Virus record (IMG/VR): IMGVR_UViG_3300032007_000014
DNA from: a virus
Lineage: Duplodnaviria > Caudoviricetes
Reading direction: 5' to 3' (one strand)
Length of the DNA: 64,000 nucleotides
The notes beneath the pieces are model-generated. The model had not been told where the DNA came from and did not search any database. It saw only the letters and a program-made list of their open reading frames with translations. The position numbers and the translations under genes are program-made. This document shows, in pieces, positions 21,101 to 37,167 of this stretch (position 1 is the stretch's first letter; each line of letters starts with the position of its first letter).

Positions 21101-21109
21101 GTAATATAT
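21101..21109 (-). promoter_or_regulatory. phiKZ-type early promoter ATATATTAC (also at 25632, 32528, 37152, 41577, 46993, 47482, 48116, 58087)
   Basis: Nine exact intergenic copies, all on the minus strand and upstream of a transcription unit; matches the phiKZ early consensus TATATTAC. Confidence 0.8.
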
Positions 21110-21169
21110 TCATATAGATCAAATGAACCATTAAAGCCGTATATTGTGATTCGAAGATGTAATAAAATA

Positions 21170-21203
21170 GTTACTGCACTGGGATCACTCCCAGTGCAGT
21201 AAC
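21170..21203 (-). terminator. Hairpin terminator
   Basis: gttactgcactggga/tcccagtgcagtaac 15-bp stem just after the 21210 stop. Confidence 0.75.
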
Positions 21204-21209
21204 CATAAA

Positions 21210-22445
21210 TCAACTTCTTTCCGCATATGCTTTGTCAAGCATAGTTGAGATCTTACTGAAATGGCTGTCAGATGGAGCTTTTCCTCCACCATTCAGAACA
21301 CCAATCGCATATCCTTGTTTGATAGCTGTATTCTGATTCTTATTGACAGTTCCAACACCAGAACAAAGCTCTGTCACTGATGAAACTTTCATTCCATTGA
21401 AACCGGTCAGTTTCTTGGAACTCACAGAACCTTTCACCATATCAGTTATTGACTTGTCAGCATATCTGCTATCACGAAGTGCAGATGGAAGAGCAGCTTG
21501 AGAAATCTGTTTTGAATCGATTCCACAACTTGTCATTGCAGTTTTCATATTTGCAACGGTGGATCCATTCTCAACAACCTTTCCAGACATAGTTCCGAAC
21601 TCTCGTCTTGCGATGGCTTTCATGTCACCGCCAGATGCAATTTCAGATACTTTTCCGAAAAGCTTTGAGTTTCCAGATGCCGCGGTAGCTGTGATCGTTG
21701 TTACAGATGCTGACACTCCAGTGACGGTACCGAGAACTCCGTTTTCGGACATGAGTTCTCTTTTACGTCCAGGACAATCCAGCATCTGATCTGCTTGACC
21801 GGTGTTACCTTTGTTCACAGCCTTGATGTAATCATCAAGGAATCCGAATGATCCAGCTAACGCTTTCAACGTATAGTCTGTATCAATCTGAGACTTCGCC
21901 CATTGACAAGTCGAACATTCGAAATATGGCTTATTCGCACAATTATTCTTCTTGTAAGACTTGGCAGATGTATCCTGTGTCTTGATCACATCATTAAGAG
22001 AAGATTTCTTTATCTCTTCTCTTGTGGTCGGAACAGAAGATTTAACTTTGGCTTTTGCATCTTGAAACAGCTTGGAGAACTTCGCTGACATGCTGTTGTT
22101 CTCCGCACGTTCTGCTTCTTCTGCAGCTTTCTGTATCTCTTCTGCTTCAAGAGCGGCATCGTATGCTTCAGCACCATACATGCCTTCATCACACATGTCG
22201 TGAACTTCATCTGCCGATAGTTCGCCAGCAGCCACTGCTGCGGCGACATCATTTTCTGGAGAAGTGACAATCTTATCCAGCATCTTCCCTGACATACTTG
22301 TAACAGAGTTGGATGCTGGAGAGTCCGTACCTGCACCTATCGGTACAGTCTTCTGGACGTCATTGATATCCTCCAAAACTTCAGTTGTTGCAGATGGGGA
22401 TGCACCACCTTGAGTGACGCCTTCTGCTTGTCCAACATTGAACAT
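21210..22445 (-). CDS. Probable virion protein with acidic A-x-E-rich N-terminal propeptide
   Basis: 411 aa; GAEAYDAALEAEE region; CxxC in the middle. Confidence 0.6.
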   Translation of the reverse strand: MFNVGQAEGVTQGGASPSATTEVLEDINDVQKTVPIGAGTDSPASNSVTSMSGKMLDKIVTSPENDVAAAVAAGELSADEVHDMCDEGMYGAEAYDAALEAEEIQKAAEEAERAENNSMSAKFSKLFQDAKAKVKSSVPTTREEIKKSSLNDVIKTQDTSAKSYKKNNCANKPYFECSTCQWAKSQIDTDYTLKALAGSFGFLDDYIKAVNKGNTGQADQMLDCPGRKRELMSENGVLGTVTGVSASVTTITATAASGNSKLFGKVSEIASGGDMKAIARREFGTMSGKVVENGSTVANMKTAMTSCGIDSKQISQAALPSALRDSRYADKSITDMVKGSVSSKKLTGFNGMKVSSVTELCSGVGTVNKNQNTAIKQGYAIGVLNGGGKAPSDSHFSKISTMLDKAYAERS

Positions 22446-22457
22446 ATGTCATCCTCC

Positions 22458-23756
22458 TTACAAATTGTTGTCAAACAGAAGTGCGGTTAAGAGCACTTTT
22501 GCTATGACGGAGGACCTCGTTCTGGTACGTGGATCAAGTGCGTTGAGTTCAGCACCACCTGTTTCTTCAAGCTGTCTCTTGAAATCACCATATGCGTTGA
22601 TGTCACCACCACGAACACGCACGAGTTCATTCAACGTAGCTTCAAGTCCACGTGTGTTAAGTGATTGGATTTCCGGTGCGGACAAAGCACATGCTCTATC
22701 AGGTCCAGAGACTTGTCCAGTCAGTGCATCAATTCTCTGGTCTCTTGAAGGAACAGAAAGTTTCTTGTCAACTTCCTGTTGTGCTCGTCTGATAGGAAGT
22801 TGGAGAACGAGATATTTCTCGTTGGTGAGATACTTTCTTCCTGTCGTAACATCGGTAAGCCAAAGCTTGTGGTAAACGTTCAAATCAACAACCGACAATC
22901 CTCTGATAAGATCATGAATCTTAAGGGACTTCTTCATATTCGGCATGATGATGTTGATCGCAATTGCTCCTTTGGAGAGATCCGTCATAAAACGAATGAA
23001 ATCATTGTCAGACATCTTTCCAAGAAGATTCTGATAACGACGTCCGTTGTCTCCAGATGGATCAAGTGTATCCATCACTTTCACAATATGAGCAATGATA
23101 CGTTTACGTTTATCTTTTCCCTTTTCAGACAACACCTCAGTTGCGACATCTTCGAAAGAAATGTTGTCATCATCTTCGCGGAATCCTTCCACTACCATGT
23201 GACCATTCGAAATCTTTTTCGCGAAGTCAGCATCATAGTGTTTCTTCCACTTCACAGTCACCTTGCGTTTTTCAGCAATCGGTAACTGCTTGTAAGAGAC
23301 GAACAACCAGTTCTTCTTGTCATCGGGTGTTGCATAGTAGAGAGCATCTTTACAGTCCTCTTTCTTGACACAATAAACATATCCAGTTGTCTCTCCTTCA
23401 ACAGGAGACAAGGATTCGTCATTGTGAACAATCTCAACAAAGTTCACTTCTCTACTGAGAGAAGCTGCTTTATCAAGTTGAAGGATATGCTCCTGATAGT
23501 TCTTCATCTTGGACCCATGTCCGATCATGAAAGGAACGATATGTGCACATGCAATGCCATACAAACGATGCATATACACAACAGGAACTTCAATGTCTCT
23601 GTTTGCTCTGTTCTTGCAAACATGGATGCCAAGACTTGTGATATCAAGATCTCTCTTGGTTCCATGATAAAGGAATTCCCCACATTTCTTCCAATCAGAT
23701 GCACTGATCGGAGAACGCTCTTCATAGGGAGTATCCTTGGTTATTTTCTTTCCCAT
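22458..23756 (-). CDS. Virion RNA polymerase beta subunit C-terminal part (phiKZ gp149-like) with an N-terminal ADP-ribosyltransferase-like domain
   Basis: C-terminal ~225 aa carry LPIRRAQQ..DKK, IDALTGQVSG, LSAPEIQSL and ELVRVRGGD. N-terminal ~180 aa carry LYHGT...VVY...GYVYCV...WLFVS. Confidence 0.8.
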   Translation of the reverse strand: MGKKITKDTPYEERSPISASDWKKCGEFLYHGTKRDLDITSLGIHVCKNRANRDIEVPVVYMHRLYGIACAHIVPFMIGHGSKMKNYQEHILQLDKAASLSREVNFVEIVHNDESLSPVEGETTGYVYCVKKEDCKDALYYATPDDKKNWLFVSYKQLPIAEKRKVTVKWKKHYDADFAKKISNGHMVVEGFREDDDNISFEDVATEVLSEKGKDKRKRIIAHIVKVMDTLDPSGDNGRRYQNLLGKMSDNDFIRFMTDLSKGAIAINIIMPNMKKSLKIHDLIRGLSVVDLNVYHKLWLTDVTTGRKYLTNEKYLVLQLPIRRAQQEVDKKLSVPSRDQRIDALTGQVSGPDRACALSAPEIQSLNTRGLEATLNELVRVRGGDINAYGDFKRQLEETGGAELNALDPRTRTRSSVIAKVLLTALLFDNNL

Positions 23757-23823
23757 ATGGGTATTCTCCTTATATTCAACAATTCATAAGATGGCATTGA
23801 AACAAAAAATAAAGAAAAAGAGA

Positions 23824-23852
23824 GAACCTCCTGGGAATATCCCAGGAGGTTC
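23824..23852 (-). terminator. Hairpin terminator
   Basis: gaacctcctggga/tcccaggaggttc followed on the minus strand by a T-rich tract. Confidence 0.75.
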
Positions 23853-23871
23853 CTTCTATCATTGATTGAAA

Positions 23872-24207
23872 TCAGAAGTCATCACGATCCTGATCACCTG
23901 AATCATCGTCATCTTCTTCATTCAAGTCGTCATCTTCCCAAGGAGGATTGTTATCTCCATTGGGATCATAGTCGTCATCGATCTCGTCATCGTCAGGTCC
24001 GCTCAACGCGTCTTCCAAGTCAGACGGATCCATCTCATCTTCGAGATAGGAGACGGCGTCATTCTCAAAACGAGAACTGTCTTCCATCCGTTCCATCTCT
24101 TCATCGAGTTCCTGCTTGCAAGCAGGACAAAGATTTGGATTCATATCGGACACGTCACGATAATCTTCCAAATCAAATGCTGCATTACATTTCTTGCATG
24201 TTAGCAT
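23872..24207 (-). CDS. Small zinc-ribbon protein with very acidic tail
   Basis: Start at 24207 after AAGGAG; CKKC...CPAC followed by a D/E-rich C-terminus. Confidence 0.7.
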   Translation of the reverse strand: MLTCKKCNAAFDLEDYRDVSDMNPNLCPACKQELDEEMERMEDSSRFENDAVSYLEDEMDPSDLEDALSGPDDDEIDDDYDPNGDNNPPWEDDDLNEEDDDDSGDQDRDDF

Positions 24208-24569
24208 GTCTTCTCCTTGCAGTTGATTGTGTAGATAGACTCGTCTACATCGATAATACCCCATCTGATTTGCACGATGCAGGGATCTTCGTTCGCATCC
24301 TGGATGATCTCGGACTTGAAGATCATCCCAACTTCGCATTTGCATCCGCGCCACTGGGTACGGATGTAATCGCTGACATCTGCGAGATACTCATTGAGAC
24401 GAAGTGCCATTTCCTTCCATCCACGAGTGTTGACTCTCGAGATTTCGACAATGTTCTCAATGAGAGGCTCGAAACTTGCCAACTGATCTTCCGTCGTGGC
24501 TCCGTTCTTGAGAGCATAGAAGATCTTCCAGATGATTCTTGCGGTTTTGTCAACCTTGTTATTTCTCAT
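24201..24569 (-). CDS. Hypothetical protein
   Basis: 122 aa, overlaps both neighbours in an early operon. Confidence 0.65.
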   Translation of the reverse strand: MRNNKVDKTARIIWKIFYALKNGATTEDQLASFEPLIENIVEISRVNTRGWKEMALRLNEYLADVSDYIRTQWRGCKCEVGMIFKSEIIQDANEDPCIVQIRWGIIDVDESIYTINCKEKTC

Positions 24570-25564: not shown

Positions 25565-25703
25565 TCTATCTATCTCCTGTTTCAAATGGGTTAAGGTGTT
25601 CTATAGATCGTCTATAGTTTACACCACTGACGTAATATATTCGTTAAAAATAAATGAAAAAGGTAACAGTGTGGATTTCTCCACACTGTTACCTCATGAA
25701 TGT

Positions 25704-33369: not shown

Positions 33370-35358
33370 ATGAACGAGATTATCATGGGAACTGGTATGG
33401 AACCTCTCATCATTGAAGTAGGAGATTACCTAGCTTCATCTGAAGGATGGTTTGACCAGATCAATGACAAAGGAAAGTATGTAACCATAAGTGGTTTCCC
33501 TGCAATTTGGTTGCAGAGGAAACTCAAAAGAGAATATGGTACATCCAAGATTCAGAACTTCTTTGAAGTGGTCGGTATCAGGTGGTTTGGAAAGTCCACG
33601 ATTCAAGTTCACAAGTTCTTCCTTCCTGAACTGATCTATCTTCTTGCAAAATTTAGATCTCCTCTTGCTCTCAGAAATGAGATCATTAACAATACATGGA
33701 TCAGATCCATGTATGAAGACACCAAGAGTACAGAGATTGATTTCAAACGAATCGATAAAGACATGAATGTGAGATTACTTCCATTCCAAAGATCTTTCAT
33801 CGAGGAATATGGAATCAAGAAAACAAGATGTCATCTCAGAGGAATGATTCTTTCATTCGATTGCGGTCTTGGTAAAACCATTACATCTCTTTCTCTCATG
33901 AAAGCACTTGGATGTGACAAGGTTGTTATCTTTGCACCAAAGTCCACACTCTTCAACGTGTGGGTTGATCATCTCAACAGGTTCTTCAAGAAAGTTCCGA
34001 AGTATTGGGTTGTCAATCAAGATCACGATCCAAAAGATGCAGAATACTACATCTGCAACTATGAAAGCATGGACAAGATTTATGACATCGTCAACCACAT
34101 CAAGAAGGGATCAAAAGTTGGTATCATCACCGATGAAAGTCACAACTTCTTGAGACTTGGAAGTAAGAGAACTCAGAATTTGATTTCTCTTCGTGATGAT
34201 CTGGATTGTCACGATTGTCTACTTCAAAGCGGCACACCTGTCAAGGCGCTAGGCGTCGAGATCATGCCACTTCTTCGAGTCATTGATGGTTTCTTTGATG
34301 AGGAAGCACAAGTGACTTTTGCCAAAGCATTTGGTGTGAATACTTTGATCGCAACTGACATTCTCCATGCACGTATGGATATGATGATGGTTCGCAAGAC
34401 AAAGGAAGAGGTGATCACACTTCCTGAAAAACATGAGCAAGATCTTCTTGTGAAGATTCGTGGTGGTGAGAGATACACCATCACCAATGTGAAGAAACTT
34501 CTCAAAGTGTATGGTGCGGAACGTTCAGATTTCCACAACAAACACATGAAAGAATATCAGGAAGAGTGGAACACTTGTATCTCGTTCCTTGCAGGACACA
34601 AGACCATTGGTCCTTCCAATGAATTCCGGAGATATCTTGATACTGTGAACTATCTGATCAAACATGGCTACAACAGATATGATCCTCGTCTTGTTGAGGA
34701 TGTTGTCTGGATGAACAAGTATGAGAAAGATGTTCTCATGCCAGCCATGTCAGCAGACATGAAGAAGATGTTCAAGCATTGCAAATCAGCAATCAAGTAT
34801 CTTGACATGAAGATTCAAGGAGAAATCCTTGGATATCTCGGACATCTTCGTGGAGAGATGACAAGCGCATTGCTGGATGCAATCGATCTTGAAGAACTTA
34901 TCAACAGTGCCATCAAGAAAACAATCCTCTTCACGTCATTTGTTGATACGGTGGAGACTGCTGCTGAGAAACTGAAATCTCTTGGATTCAAGCCGTGTCT
35001 CGTATATGGTGAGACATCCAAAGAGGTTCCTCAGTTACTCAAGCAATTCAGAGAGGACAAATCAATCAATCCTCTTGTCGCAACCATGCAAACACTGGCA
35101 ACTGGCGTAACGCTTGTCGAAGCCAATCAAGTCATCTTCATCAACAGACCTTGGCGAGATGCGGACTACAAGCAAAGTTCGGACCGTGTCTGGCGCATAG
35201 GCCAAGATACCGAATGTTACATCTACACACTCACACTTGACACTGGAGAAGAGCCCAACTTGTCCACATCCATGAAAGACATCCTCGACTGGTCGAAGGA
35301 AATGTCTGAAGCAATCGTGGATGGAACACGTGGTTTTGCTTTCAGTGATTTCATGTGA
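33370..35358 (+). CDS. SNF2-family (SF2) helicase, probably virion-associated
   Basis: GLGKT, DESH, SGTP, ATGVTL and QSSDRVWRIGQ motifs; short acidic N-terminus ending in SSE. Confidence 0.88.
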   Translation: MNEIIMGTGMEPLIIEVGDYLASSEGWFDQINDKGKYVTISGFPAIWLQRKLKREYGTSKIQNFFEVVGIRWFGKSTIQVHKFFLPELIYLLAKFRSPLALRNEIINNTWIRSMYEDTKSTEIDFKRIDKDMNVRLLPFQRSFIEEYGIKKTRCHLRGMILSFDCGLGKTITSLSLMKALGCDKVVIFAPKSTLFNVWVDHLNRFFKKVPKYWVVNQDHDPKDAEYYICNYESMDKIYDIVNHIKKGSKVGIITDESHNFLRLGSKRTQNLISLRDDLDCHDCLLQSGTPVKALGVEIMPLLRVIDGFFDEEAQVTFAKAFGVNTLIATDILHARMDMMMVRKTKEEVITLPEKHEQDLLVKIRGGERYTITNVKKLLKVYGAERSDFHNKHMKEYQEEWNTCISFLAGHKTIGPSNEFRRYLDTVNYLIKHGYNRYDPRLVEDVVWMNKYEKDVLMPAMSADMKKMFKHCKSAIKYLDMKIQGEILGYLGHLRGEMTSALLDAIDLEELINSAIKKTILFTSFVDTVETAAEKLKSLGFKPCLVYGETSKEVPQLLKQFREDKSINPLVATMQTLATGVTLVEANQVIFINRPWRDADYKQSSDRVWRIGQDTECYIYTLTLDTGEEPNLSTSMKDILDWSKEMSEAIVDGTRGFAFSDFM

Positions 35359-37150: not shown

Positions 37151-37167
37151 TGTAATATATACACAAA

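Follow-up and report, generated by a model that had tools for sequence, protein, structure and literature searches.

The 64,000-nucleotide window analysed here is part of a 238-kb IMG/VR virus record (IMGVR_UViG_3300032007_000014; estimated completeness 90%), and our subject is a single gene within it, that of a two-domain protein designated P0001 (Table 1). An earlier note on this DNA had read the N-terminal half of P0001 as an ADP-ribosyltransferase (ART)-like domain recalling the rifampin-modifying enzyme Arr, and the C-terminal half as the beta-C subunit of the virion RNA polymerase. It had further proposed that the phage uses the packaged subunit to load an ART into the capsid, from which a prohead protease might cut it free. 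The assignment of the C-terminal half is borne out by its homology, and the N-terminal half is very likely of ART fold. The loading idea gains strong comparative support from the variable enzyme arrays that relatives carry on the same anchor; packaging itself we infer.

Because an AAGGAG ribosome-binding site precedes the ATG, only nine in-frame codons separate that ATG from the nearest upstream stop, and the terminator of the preceding gene lies close by, the start codon of P0001 is considered sound. The gene opens a new transcription unit. The identical protein was recovered from independent samples on 22 contigs, eight of them at least 200 kb long, and several of the source samples are bovine or rumen metagenomes by their names. 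In the 90% cluster of P0001, every full-length population variant is 432 residues long; no stop codon or frameshift splits the two domains in any of these, and more than 20 orthologues are fused in one frame. Given the independent contigs and the constant length, the fusion is real, being neither a frameshift nor a mis-join. The cluster variants (P0028-P0039) differ at 11 positions: nine in the ART-like domain (residues 40, 41, 53, 66, 98, 101, 122, 177 and 187, none of them an invariant residue) and the other two in the polymerase module, while the linker does not vary. A megablast search of the fusion gene against GenBank phages found no match.

Table 1. The fusion gene, the parts of its product and its 5' flank, in window positions
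Feature	Position	Strand	Remarks
P0001 fusion gene	22458..23756	-	432 aa + stop codon; identical protein on 22 contigs
beta-C module, phiKZ gp149 / phrog_3233 family	22461..23111	-	aa 216-432; long helix aa 211-231 at its start
Acidic interdomain linker, predicted disordered	23112..23183	-	aa 192-215; unconserved apart from the cleavage-type site
Candidate prohead-protease site A205-T206-E207	23136..23144	-	position conserved in 19/19 fused orthologues
Second S-x-E tripeptide S199-F200-E201	23154..23162	-	not conserved in orthologues
End-of-domain motif V189-V190-E191	23184..23192	-	A-V-E|S in most orthologues
Predicted Arr/Tpt1-like ART-fold domain, type A	23184..23756	-	aa 1-191; core ~aa 26-185; AlphaFold, structure matches and ESM Atlas
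Ribosome-binding site AAGGAG of P0001	23766..23771	-	9 nt 5' of the ATG
Intrinsic terminator of the upstream gene	23823..23853	-	14-bp stem and T-run

The C-terminal half is a gp149-type beta-C module, homologous over its full length to both phrog_3233 and phiKZ gp149. The phrog_3233 profile (“RNA polymerase beta subunit”) matches residues 215-432 (E 9e-59; profile positions 3-222 of 225), and residues 3-223 of the 224-residue gp149 align with residues 216-432 at 31% identity (E 2.5e-31). In a tblastn search of GenBank phages, 293 records matched the C-terminal half only, with none of the 293 covering 80% or more of the query; the closest cultured-phage match has 38% identity. Sequence comparison thus places the source phage among the phiKZ-like jumbo phages, far from all cultured ones. 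When the lengths of gp149 homologues were compared across jumbo phages, as the earlier note had suggested, the stand-alone forms proved to have 219-259 residues. Those of RTH11, EL and phiKZ have 221-225 residues, and the stand-alone homologues start exactly at the module. In the annotations, phiKZ gp149 is a “structural head protein” and PhiPA3 gp172 a “virion structural protein”. The beta cognate of the virion RNA polymerase is split into three proteins, the last of which is this C-terminal piece (PMC7824862). The genome also encodes homologues of the partners gp178 (E 3e-62) and gp180 (E 3e-61), together with homologues of gp152 and gp176. A gp175-like head protease gives a weak match (27% identity, E 1.4e-6); it adjoins the gp176-like gene, as in phiKZ (genome positions 142824-144082, outside the window), and is itself encoded at 142824-143303 on the minus strand.

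The N-terminal half is far more isolated in sequence databases. Residues 1-200 have no match in Pfam (E up to 10), PHROG or NCBIfam, and no real match in the PDB, which was searched with the single sequence and two profiles; the PDB rows that did appear (an unrelated 134-residue protein, a G-protein-coupled-receptor fusion and a cobaltochelatase) were set aside as chance. A word-indexed search of 5.8 billion proteins with the domain as the single query returned only P0001 itself. An exhaustive phmmer search of 1.84 billion representatives yielded nine matches at 43-58% identity, eight of which are internal segments of proteins of 888-2,435 residues; the ninth is P0003, a near-identical variant of 349 residues. 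Further copies, including divergent second copies, were added by a profile search. We refer to the close group of copies as type A and to the divergent paralogue as type B. A locus search for the domain with a narrower alignment found one IMG/VR locus, and type-A patterns scanned over 185,579 bacterial and archaeal species genomes found no relatives.

Structure-based comparisons were more informative. The AlphaFold model of the domain, built from 32 copies, has a mean predicted local distance difference test score (pLDDT) of 79 and a predicted template modelling score (pTM) of 0.75, and it contains the split beta-sheet of the ART fold. Arr-2 and Arr were its top PDB matches in Foldseek, both weak (E 0.04-0.6). 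In a structure alignment against 48,161 chains that was independent of Foldseek, roughly 40 of the 50 listed rows belong to the ART superfamily: Tpt1/KptA, HopF, Scabin, TreX, the pertussis, cholera and heat-labile toxins, diphtheria-toxin homologues, Arr, PARPs, DarT and MbcT. Of the solved structures, those of Arr and Tpt1/KptA come nearest; of Tpt1/KptA only the NAD (nicotinamide adenine dinucleotide) lobe aligns (chain residues ~84-181), and ~25 residues precede strand 1 in the P0001 domain. Among the feature neighbours in the ESM Atlas, 63 of the 100 named are Arr-ms clusters (score 0.93), making Arr clusters the nearest by language-model features, and the structural neighbours of the Atlas's own model include Arr, DUF952, DUF6886 and RES. 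Three orthologous copies match Pfam Arr-ms (PF12120) weakly and collinearly from the Y-H-G-T strand onward, the best at 16.4 bits (E 0.011; residues 28-86 on profile positions 1-58). The Pfam Arr-ms model matched nothing when the whole genome was searched in six frames; CARDS_D3 and HPIH rows in the Pfam scan of the members (E 0.01-0.1) were rejected as chance matches. No one of these scores is decisive; because several of them agree, we consider it very likely that the domain has an ART fold of the His-Tyr clade, as the models predict. It is Arr/Tpt1-like, yet outside both families.

P0001 does carry the motifs on which the ART reading had originally been based: F28-L-Y-H31-G-T-K-R-D-L, V59-V-Y61, T123-T-G-Y-V-Y-C-V, W150-L-F-V-S and L158-P. 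An alignment of 12 type-A copies (43-58% identity to P0001) has 56 invariant columns, many of them polar, as would be expected of an enzyme more than of a spacer. The invariant residues listed are H31-G32-T33, K48, R50, N52, Y61, H72, H80, K83, E89, H90, E108, H111, N112, D113, D137, Y140, W170 and E190. Y30-H31-G32-T33 ends the modelled strand 28-33 and is invariant in the 12 type-A copies and mostly kept in type B, some copies of which lack the His. Y61, in strand 59-63 ahead of helix 66-71, is invariant in type A and replaced by Phe in type B. No acidic residue is invariant across both types; D137 is present in all the aligned type-A copies and in most of type B. Arr is marked by an H-G-T that ends strand 1 (H19 in Arr-ms), Tyr49, a catalytic Asp84 within DPN[VL] and an SN[YF] loop (PMC6092378). 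Because D137 comes after the G-Y-I-Y strand, like D84 in Arr, it may be the third catalytic residue, the correspondence being one of motif order only. The DPN[VL] and SN[YF] motifs are absent from the type-A consensus, in which the loop reads C-K-N-R-A-N and the segment after G-Y-I-Y reads L-D-D-L-Y-Y. A ~45-residue insert (72-118), rich in invariant His, Glu and Asn, is without counterpart in Arr. Rifampicin protection was rejected as the leading explanation of the domain: the drug-binding motifs of Arr are absent, and kinship of fold would be its sole support.

Between the two halves lies the acidic stretch V189...E207, containing both tripeptides that the earlier note had proposed as prohead-protease-type sites, SFE (199-201) and ATE (205-207). 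Their mere presence means little, as P0001 holds seven [SAGT]-x-E tripeptides; only positional conservation counts. On that measure ATE207 stands and SFE201 does not. A tripeptide of the form [S/A/T]-x-E|[A/S/V] is found in 19 of 19 fused proteins, whatever domain lies upstream, with its Glu 5-12 residues ahead of the K-[KR]-K that starts the module. The chance of such a tripeptide in that nine-residue span is 0.11-0.20 per protein, calculated from each protein's own tripeptide density, and the naive product over 12 otherwise diverged linkers is 3e-10, although these linkers are not fully independent. L018, the sole unfused member of the fused clade, has a 16-residue leader with S-T-E. Residues 186-210 have pLDDT values below 50 in the full-length model, in which a long helix begins at 211; the model (pTM 0.38) was used for linker disorder only, and its low pLDDT there indicates that the candidate sites lie in an exposed linker. 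The prohead protease of phage SPN3US cuts after A-x-E and favours Ser at P1'; its known cuts remove N-terminal propeptides, mostly of 111-254 residues, the one exception being a C-terminal self-cleavage (PMC10052503). The A-V-E|S at the end of the ART-like domain in orthologues fits this logo perfectly, whereas P0001 reads V-V-E|G.

The relatives of P0001 suggest what the polymerase module may be for. Outside P0001 and P0003, the type-A domain appears to recur only in multidomain proteins of 888-2,608 residues from uncultured jumbo phages, and in local searches nearly every protein with the ART-like domain ends in the same beta-C module. Residues 5-432 of P0001 are 49% identical to the 888-residue P0012, and the fusion loci are syntenic, with downstream genes of ~411-546, 375-408, 515-518 and 563-564 codons. 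At the position that the single ART-like domain occupies in P0001, orthologues hold 350-2,400 residues of shuffled enzyme domains. This cargo includes DUF5662, type-B plus type-A ART-like domains, SNF2 helicase, GNAT, SET, HD and phrog_3921 domains and unassigned stretches. The fused proteins are 565-2,608 residues long and fall into at least 15 architectures; P0001 has two domains and its orthologues have up to about seven. When IMG/VR was surveyed for beta-C homologues, 25 distinct loci emerged, fused on five contigs (565, 1,225, 1,599, 1,717 and 2,608 residues, two of the five without any ART-like domain) and stand-alone, at 219-259 residues, in the rest. In a maximum-likelihood tree of the beta-C modules, 22 fused forms and one 236-residue form make up one group (support 90/89), sister to the group with phiKZ, EL and RTH11. 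Modules less than 0.02-0.1 branch length apart within the fused group bear architectures of 888-2,141 residues. In P0027 an HD domain stands directly ahead of the beta-C module. The conserved anchor with its fast-shuffling enzymatic cargo is, from these comparisons, the signature of polyvalent proteins, and P0001 reads as a minimal member.

Some polyvalent proteins that contain the ART-like domain have no polymerase module (P0004, P0018, P0019 and P0024-26), and for this reason we regard the domain as a mobile effector module rather than a propeptide of the polymerase. P0004 (L006:4001-10138; 2,045 residues) has one type-B-like and one type-A domain, and no Pfam domains were found in it; its true stop falls exactly at the V-V-E of the domain, and on its 45-kb contig it lies beside a gene for more than 3,000 residues. 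The window itself contains a stand-alone gene for a 662-residue SNF2-type helicase (33370-35358, plus strand), the product of which is 45-52% identical over ~650 residues to the fused SNF2 cargo of P0007 and L012. SNF2 is thus free here and fused in relatives, which indicates that the modules undergo fusion and fission. P0003, from a 2,757-bp ENA contig, is 99-100% identical to P0001 from residue 84 to ~275 and ~35% identical from there to its end; either a recombination breakpoint within the polymerase module or a chimeric metagenomic assembly would account for it. On the 361-kb record IMGVR_UViG_3300045988_163688, the 1,599-residue fusion locus appears twice (L013/L014), near both ends and in opposite orientation, reflecting either a long inverted terminal duplication or an assembly concatemer.

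The surroundings of the fusion gene in the window are as follows. Twelve nt downstream begins a gene for a 411-residue Ser/Thr/Ala-rich protein (21210-22445, minus strand), which is probably co-transcribed with the fusion gene; the next terminator past it is at 21167-21206. The product, which matches no PHROG or NCBIfam model, may be a further head or ejection protein. By comparison of position only, relatives carry a gene for 468-546 residues at this place. Upstream, a small gene (23872-24345, minus strand) that ends at the terminator listed in Table 1 encodes an FmdB-like CxxC...CxxC zinc ribbon, with a weak match to TIGR02605 and no family assignment; its extremely acidic, Asp/Glu-rich C-terminal tail has the look of a nucleic-acid mimic. 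The motif TATATTAC occurs 10 times in the window, always on the minus strand (for example, at 21101-21108, 25632-25639 and 37152-37159), against 0.57 copies expected by shuffling, a pattern compatible with a phage promoter motif. No copy of this early-type motif lies directly upstream of the fusion gene. Its absence, together with the terminator behind which the gene sits, would fit middle or late expression, as for a virion protein.

From this evidence we think it probable that P0001 is a minimal polyvalent virion protein, in which one effector domain is carried on a gp149-type beta-C subunit and freed by the prohead protease. The beta-C module would join the other subunits of the virion polymerase and enter the prohead, bringing the N-terminal cargo along. 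There the protease would cut at ATE207|V and perhaps also at VVE191|G, releasing a mature beta-C that starts about eight residues ahead of the natural start of its stand-alone homologues. A free ART-like protein of ~190-207 residues would remain inside the capsid, and both products would be ejected with the DNA. In the new cell, the ART-like domain may use NAD+ to modify a macromolecule of the host, the end of a nucleic acid or a small molecule, with a catalytic centre of the H-Y-D kind (H31, Y61 and the candidate D137) rather than H-Y-E. Packaging, cleavage and enzyme activity are all steps that we infer.

Several observations weigh against this scheme. The phage is uncultured and known from sequence alone. 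No conserved acidic residue can be placed at the classical catalytic position, and the domain might only bind NAD or ADP-ribose. P0001 itself gives no match to PF12120 at E up to 10, and its orthologous copies reach only 16 bits where the gathering threshold is 25. The end-of-domain site of P0001 has Val at P3, outside the S/A/G set; the homology of the gp175-like protease is weak (27% identity, E 1e-6), and its specificity is taken from related phages. Finally, cleaved propeptides of SPN3US mostly leave the capsid (PMC10052503), and the released N-terminal piece might be lost in the same way.

It is also conceivable, albeit unlikely, that the domain remains tethered to the virion polymerase, or in association with it, and works in cis on nucleic acid while early genes are transcribed, not as a free toxin directed at the host. 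It could then modify the phosphate ends of RNA or DNA in an NAD+-dependent way, as Tpt1/KptA-like enzymes do, adding, for example, an ADP-ribose cap to early transcripts or to the end of the injected genome. The structural matches to Tpt1 and the HD and SNF2 neighbours are in keeping with such a role. The conserved cleavage-type site that lies between the cargo and the polymerase module, however, speaks for their separation, and the domain is also found where there is no polymerase module to be tethered to. Further, it is the ART lobe alone that matches Tpt1; the N-terminal RNA-binding lobe is missing, as is any Pfam Tpt1 match.

Head proteins of giant phages often have N-terminal propeptides of 111-254 residues that are cut at A-x-E and mostly cleared (PMC10052503). 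The N-terminal part of P0001 might similarly be a non-catalytic propeptide or assembly domain, or a binder of NAD or ADP-ribose that serves the folding, targeting or timing of beta-C, in which case it would be removed and nothing delivered. That no classical catalytic Glu was identified and that some type-B copies lack the His would agree with this. We give the idea only a small chance: stand-alone gp149 homologues need no propeptide, some polyvalent proteins have the domain but no polymerase module, and its 56 invariant columns include H-G-T and the Tyr. In addition, the cargo of relatives consists of recognisable enzymes (SNF2, GNAT, HD and SET) and extends to 2,400 residues, which is implausible as disposable material.

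That the fusion brings co-expression only, with the ART-like domain acting late in the producer cell, cleaved or not, and never packaged, seems improbable. The lack of TATATTAC at the gene and the terminator upstream do fit middle or late expression, but virion proteins are also expressed late, and for a single polypeptide with a packaged subunit, co-packaging is the default. Moreover, the conserved site suits a protease that is active within proheads, and the precedent of polyvalent proteins favours delivery (PMC5512222). An artefactual origin of the fusion, by frameshift, mis-assembly or wrongly joined genes, is scarcely credible, since only P0003, with its mosaic or chimeric C-terminus on one short contig, hints at it, against an identical 432-codon reading frame on 22 independent contigs, full-length variants of a single length and more than 20 orthologues with cargo and beta-C in one frame.

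Some elements of our preferred reading, that of an effector loaded on beta-C and freed by the prohead protease, are already known: polyvalent injected proteins, head-packaged ARTs such as T4 Alt, an HD domain on beta-C in AR9-like phages and an ART on an N4-type polymerase. T4 Alt is an ART of the R-S-E type and is targeted by a short N-terminal capsid-targeting sequence. It is loaded into the head, undergoes processing by the prohead protease and enters the cell with the injected DNA (PMC5512222, PMC9503650). P0001 would resemble it as a presumed head-packaged ART; it differs in that its domain is of the H-Y type (Arr/Tpt1-like) and is carried on a polymerase subunit, so that the anchor is C-terminal. 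Polyvalent proteins combine 2-15 functionally unrelated domains in one phage polypeptide, and their packaging and injection have been proposed; among their macromolecule-modifying domains, ART is the commonest (PMC5512222, PMC9503650). The P0001 family shares with those described by Iyer, Burroughs, Anand, de Souza and Aravind in 2017 the mixed effectors (ART, SWI2/SNF2 and GNAT) and the rapid shuffling of architectures (PMC5512222). The family is anchored, however, by one subunit of a multisubunit virion RNA polymerase in place of MuF, a metallopeptidase or an N4-type polymerase, and processing apparently falls to the prohead protease at [S/A/T]-x-E rather than to an internal peptidase. The 2017 paper does not mention jumbo or phiKZ-like phages (PMC5512222).

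Two earlier fusions bear comparison. In the Bacillus jumbo phages AR9, PBS1 and vB_BpuM_BpSp, an HD domain of unknown role is N-terminal on the beta-C fragment (PMC7598289; PMC7824862), so that both the subunit and its N-terminal point of fusion are those of P0001. The C-terminal part of phrog_23439 (“hydrolase”, 423 residues) matches the beta-C module of P0001. Whereas the AR9-type fusion consists of one unchanging HD domain within a single phage group, the P0001 clade is a different, uncultured one with a hypervariable array, an ART-like domain and a conserved cleavage-type site. In Roseovarius Plymouth podovirus 1, an ART is fused to an N4-like single-subunit virion RNA polymerase (PMC5512222), and thus, as in P0001, an ART stands in one chain with a packaged, injected RNA polymerase. 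That polymerase is T7-like and part of a giant protein of ~3,500 residues, whereas the partner in P0001 is a small subunit of the beta/beta' type; because the polymerases are unrelated, the two fusions are convergent. With Arr (PF12120; PDB 2hw2 and 9iba), the P0001 domain shares the ART fold, the H-G-T that ends strand 1, the Tyr on the next core strand, the lack of a classical catalytic Glu and a strand of the G-Y-I-Y type. It differs from Arr in scoring below the Pfam cut-off, in lacking DPN[VL] and SN[YF], in its ~45-residue insert and in its length (~190 vs. ~140 residues), and from Tpt1/KptA in having neither the N-terminal RNA-binding lobe nor a Pfam match. We found no description, in sources that included a 2021 jumbo-phage survey and a 2026 review, of beta-C as an anchor for hypervariable effector arrays in a phiKZ-like clade, of the conserved S-x-E|A release site or of the ART-like family of P0001.

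Little is known of the way in which jumbo phages select, and load into the capsid, the dozens of proteins that are ejected with their DNA. Our results suggest a testable packaging rule: cargo is placed on the N-terminus of beta-C, upstream of an S/A-x-E site. A more sweeping version would hold for a whole clade of uncultured phiKZ-like jumbo phages. In it, beta-C would be a general loading dock, almost any N-terminal effector array ahead of S-x-E|A would be packaged, cut and injected, and the ART-like domain would belong to a new family that modifies nucleic-acid ends or inactivates a small-molecule inhibitor at the polymerase. Taken whole, that version is quite unlikely. Were the loading dock to prove real, the same site could load chosen proteins into jumbo-phage capsids; were the new ART family, its activity might be, for instance, to cap early transcripts or the incoming genome with ADP-ribose.

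The ART-like domain itself represents a new, phage-only family with two paralogous types that the models of Pfam, PHROG and NCBIfam leave uncovered. The findings also extend the idea of polyvalent proteins to jumbo phages of the nucleus-forming type, and the long-puzzling HD fusion of the AR9-like phages becomes one case of a wider pattern. Finally, at least 15 architectures on near-identical anchors read as the record of a fast arms race in the rumen and other microbiomes.

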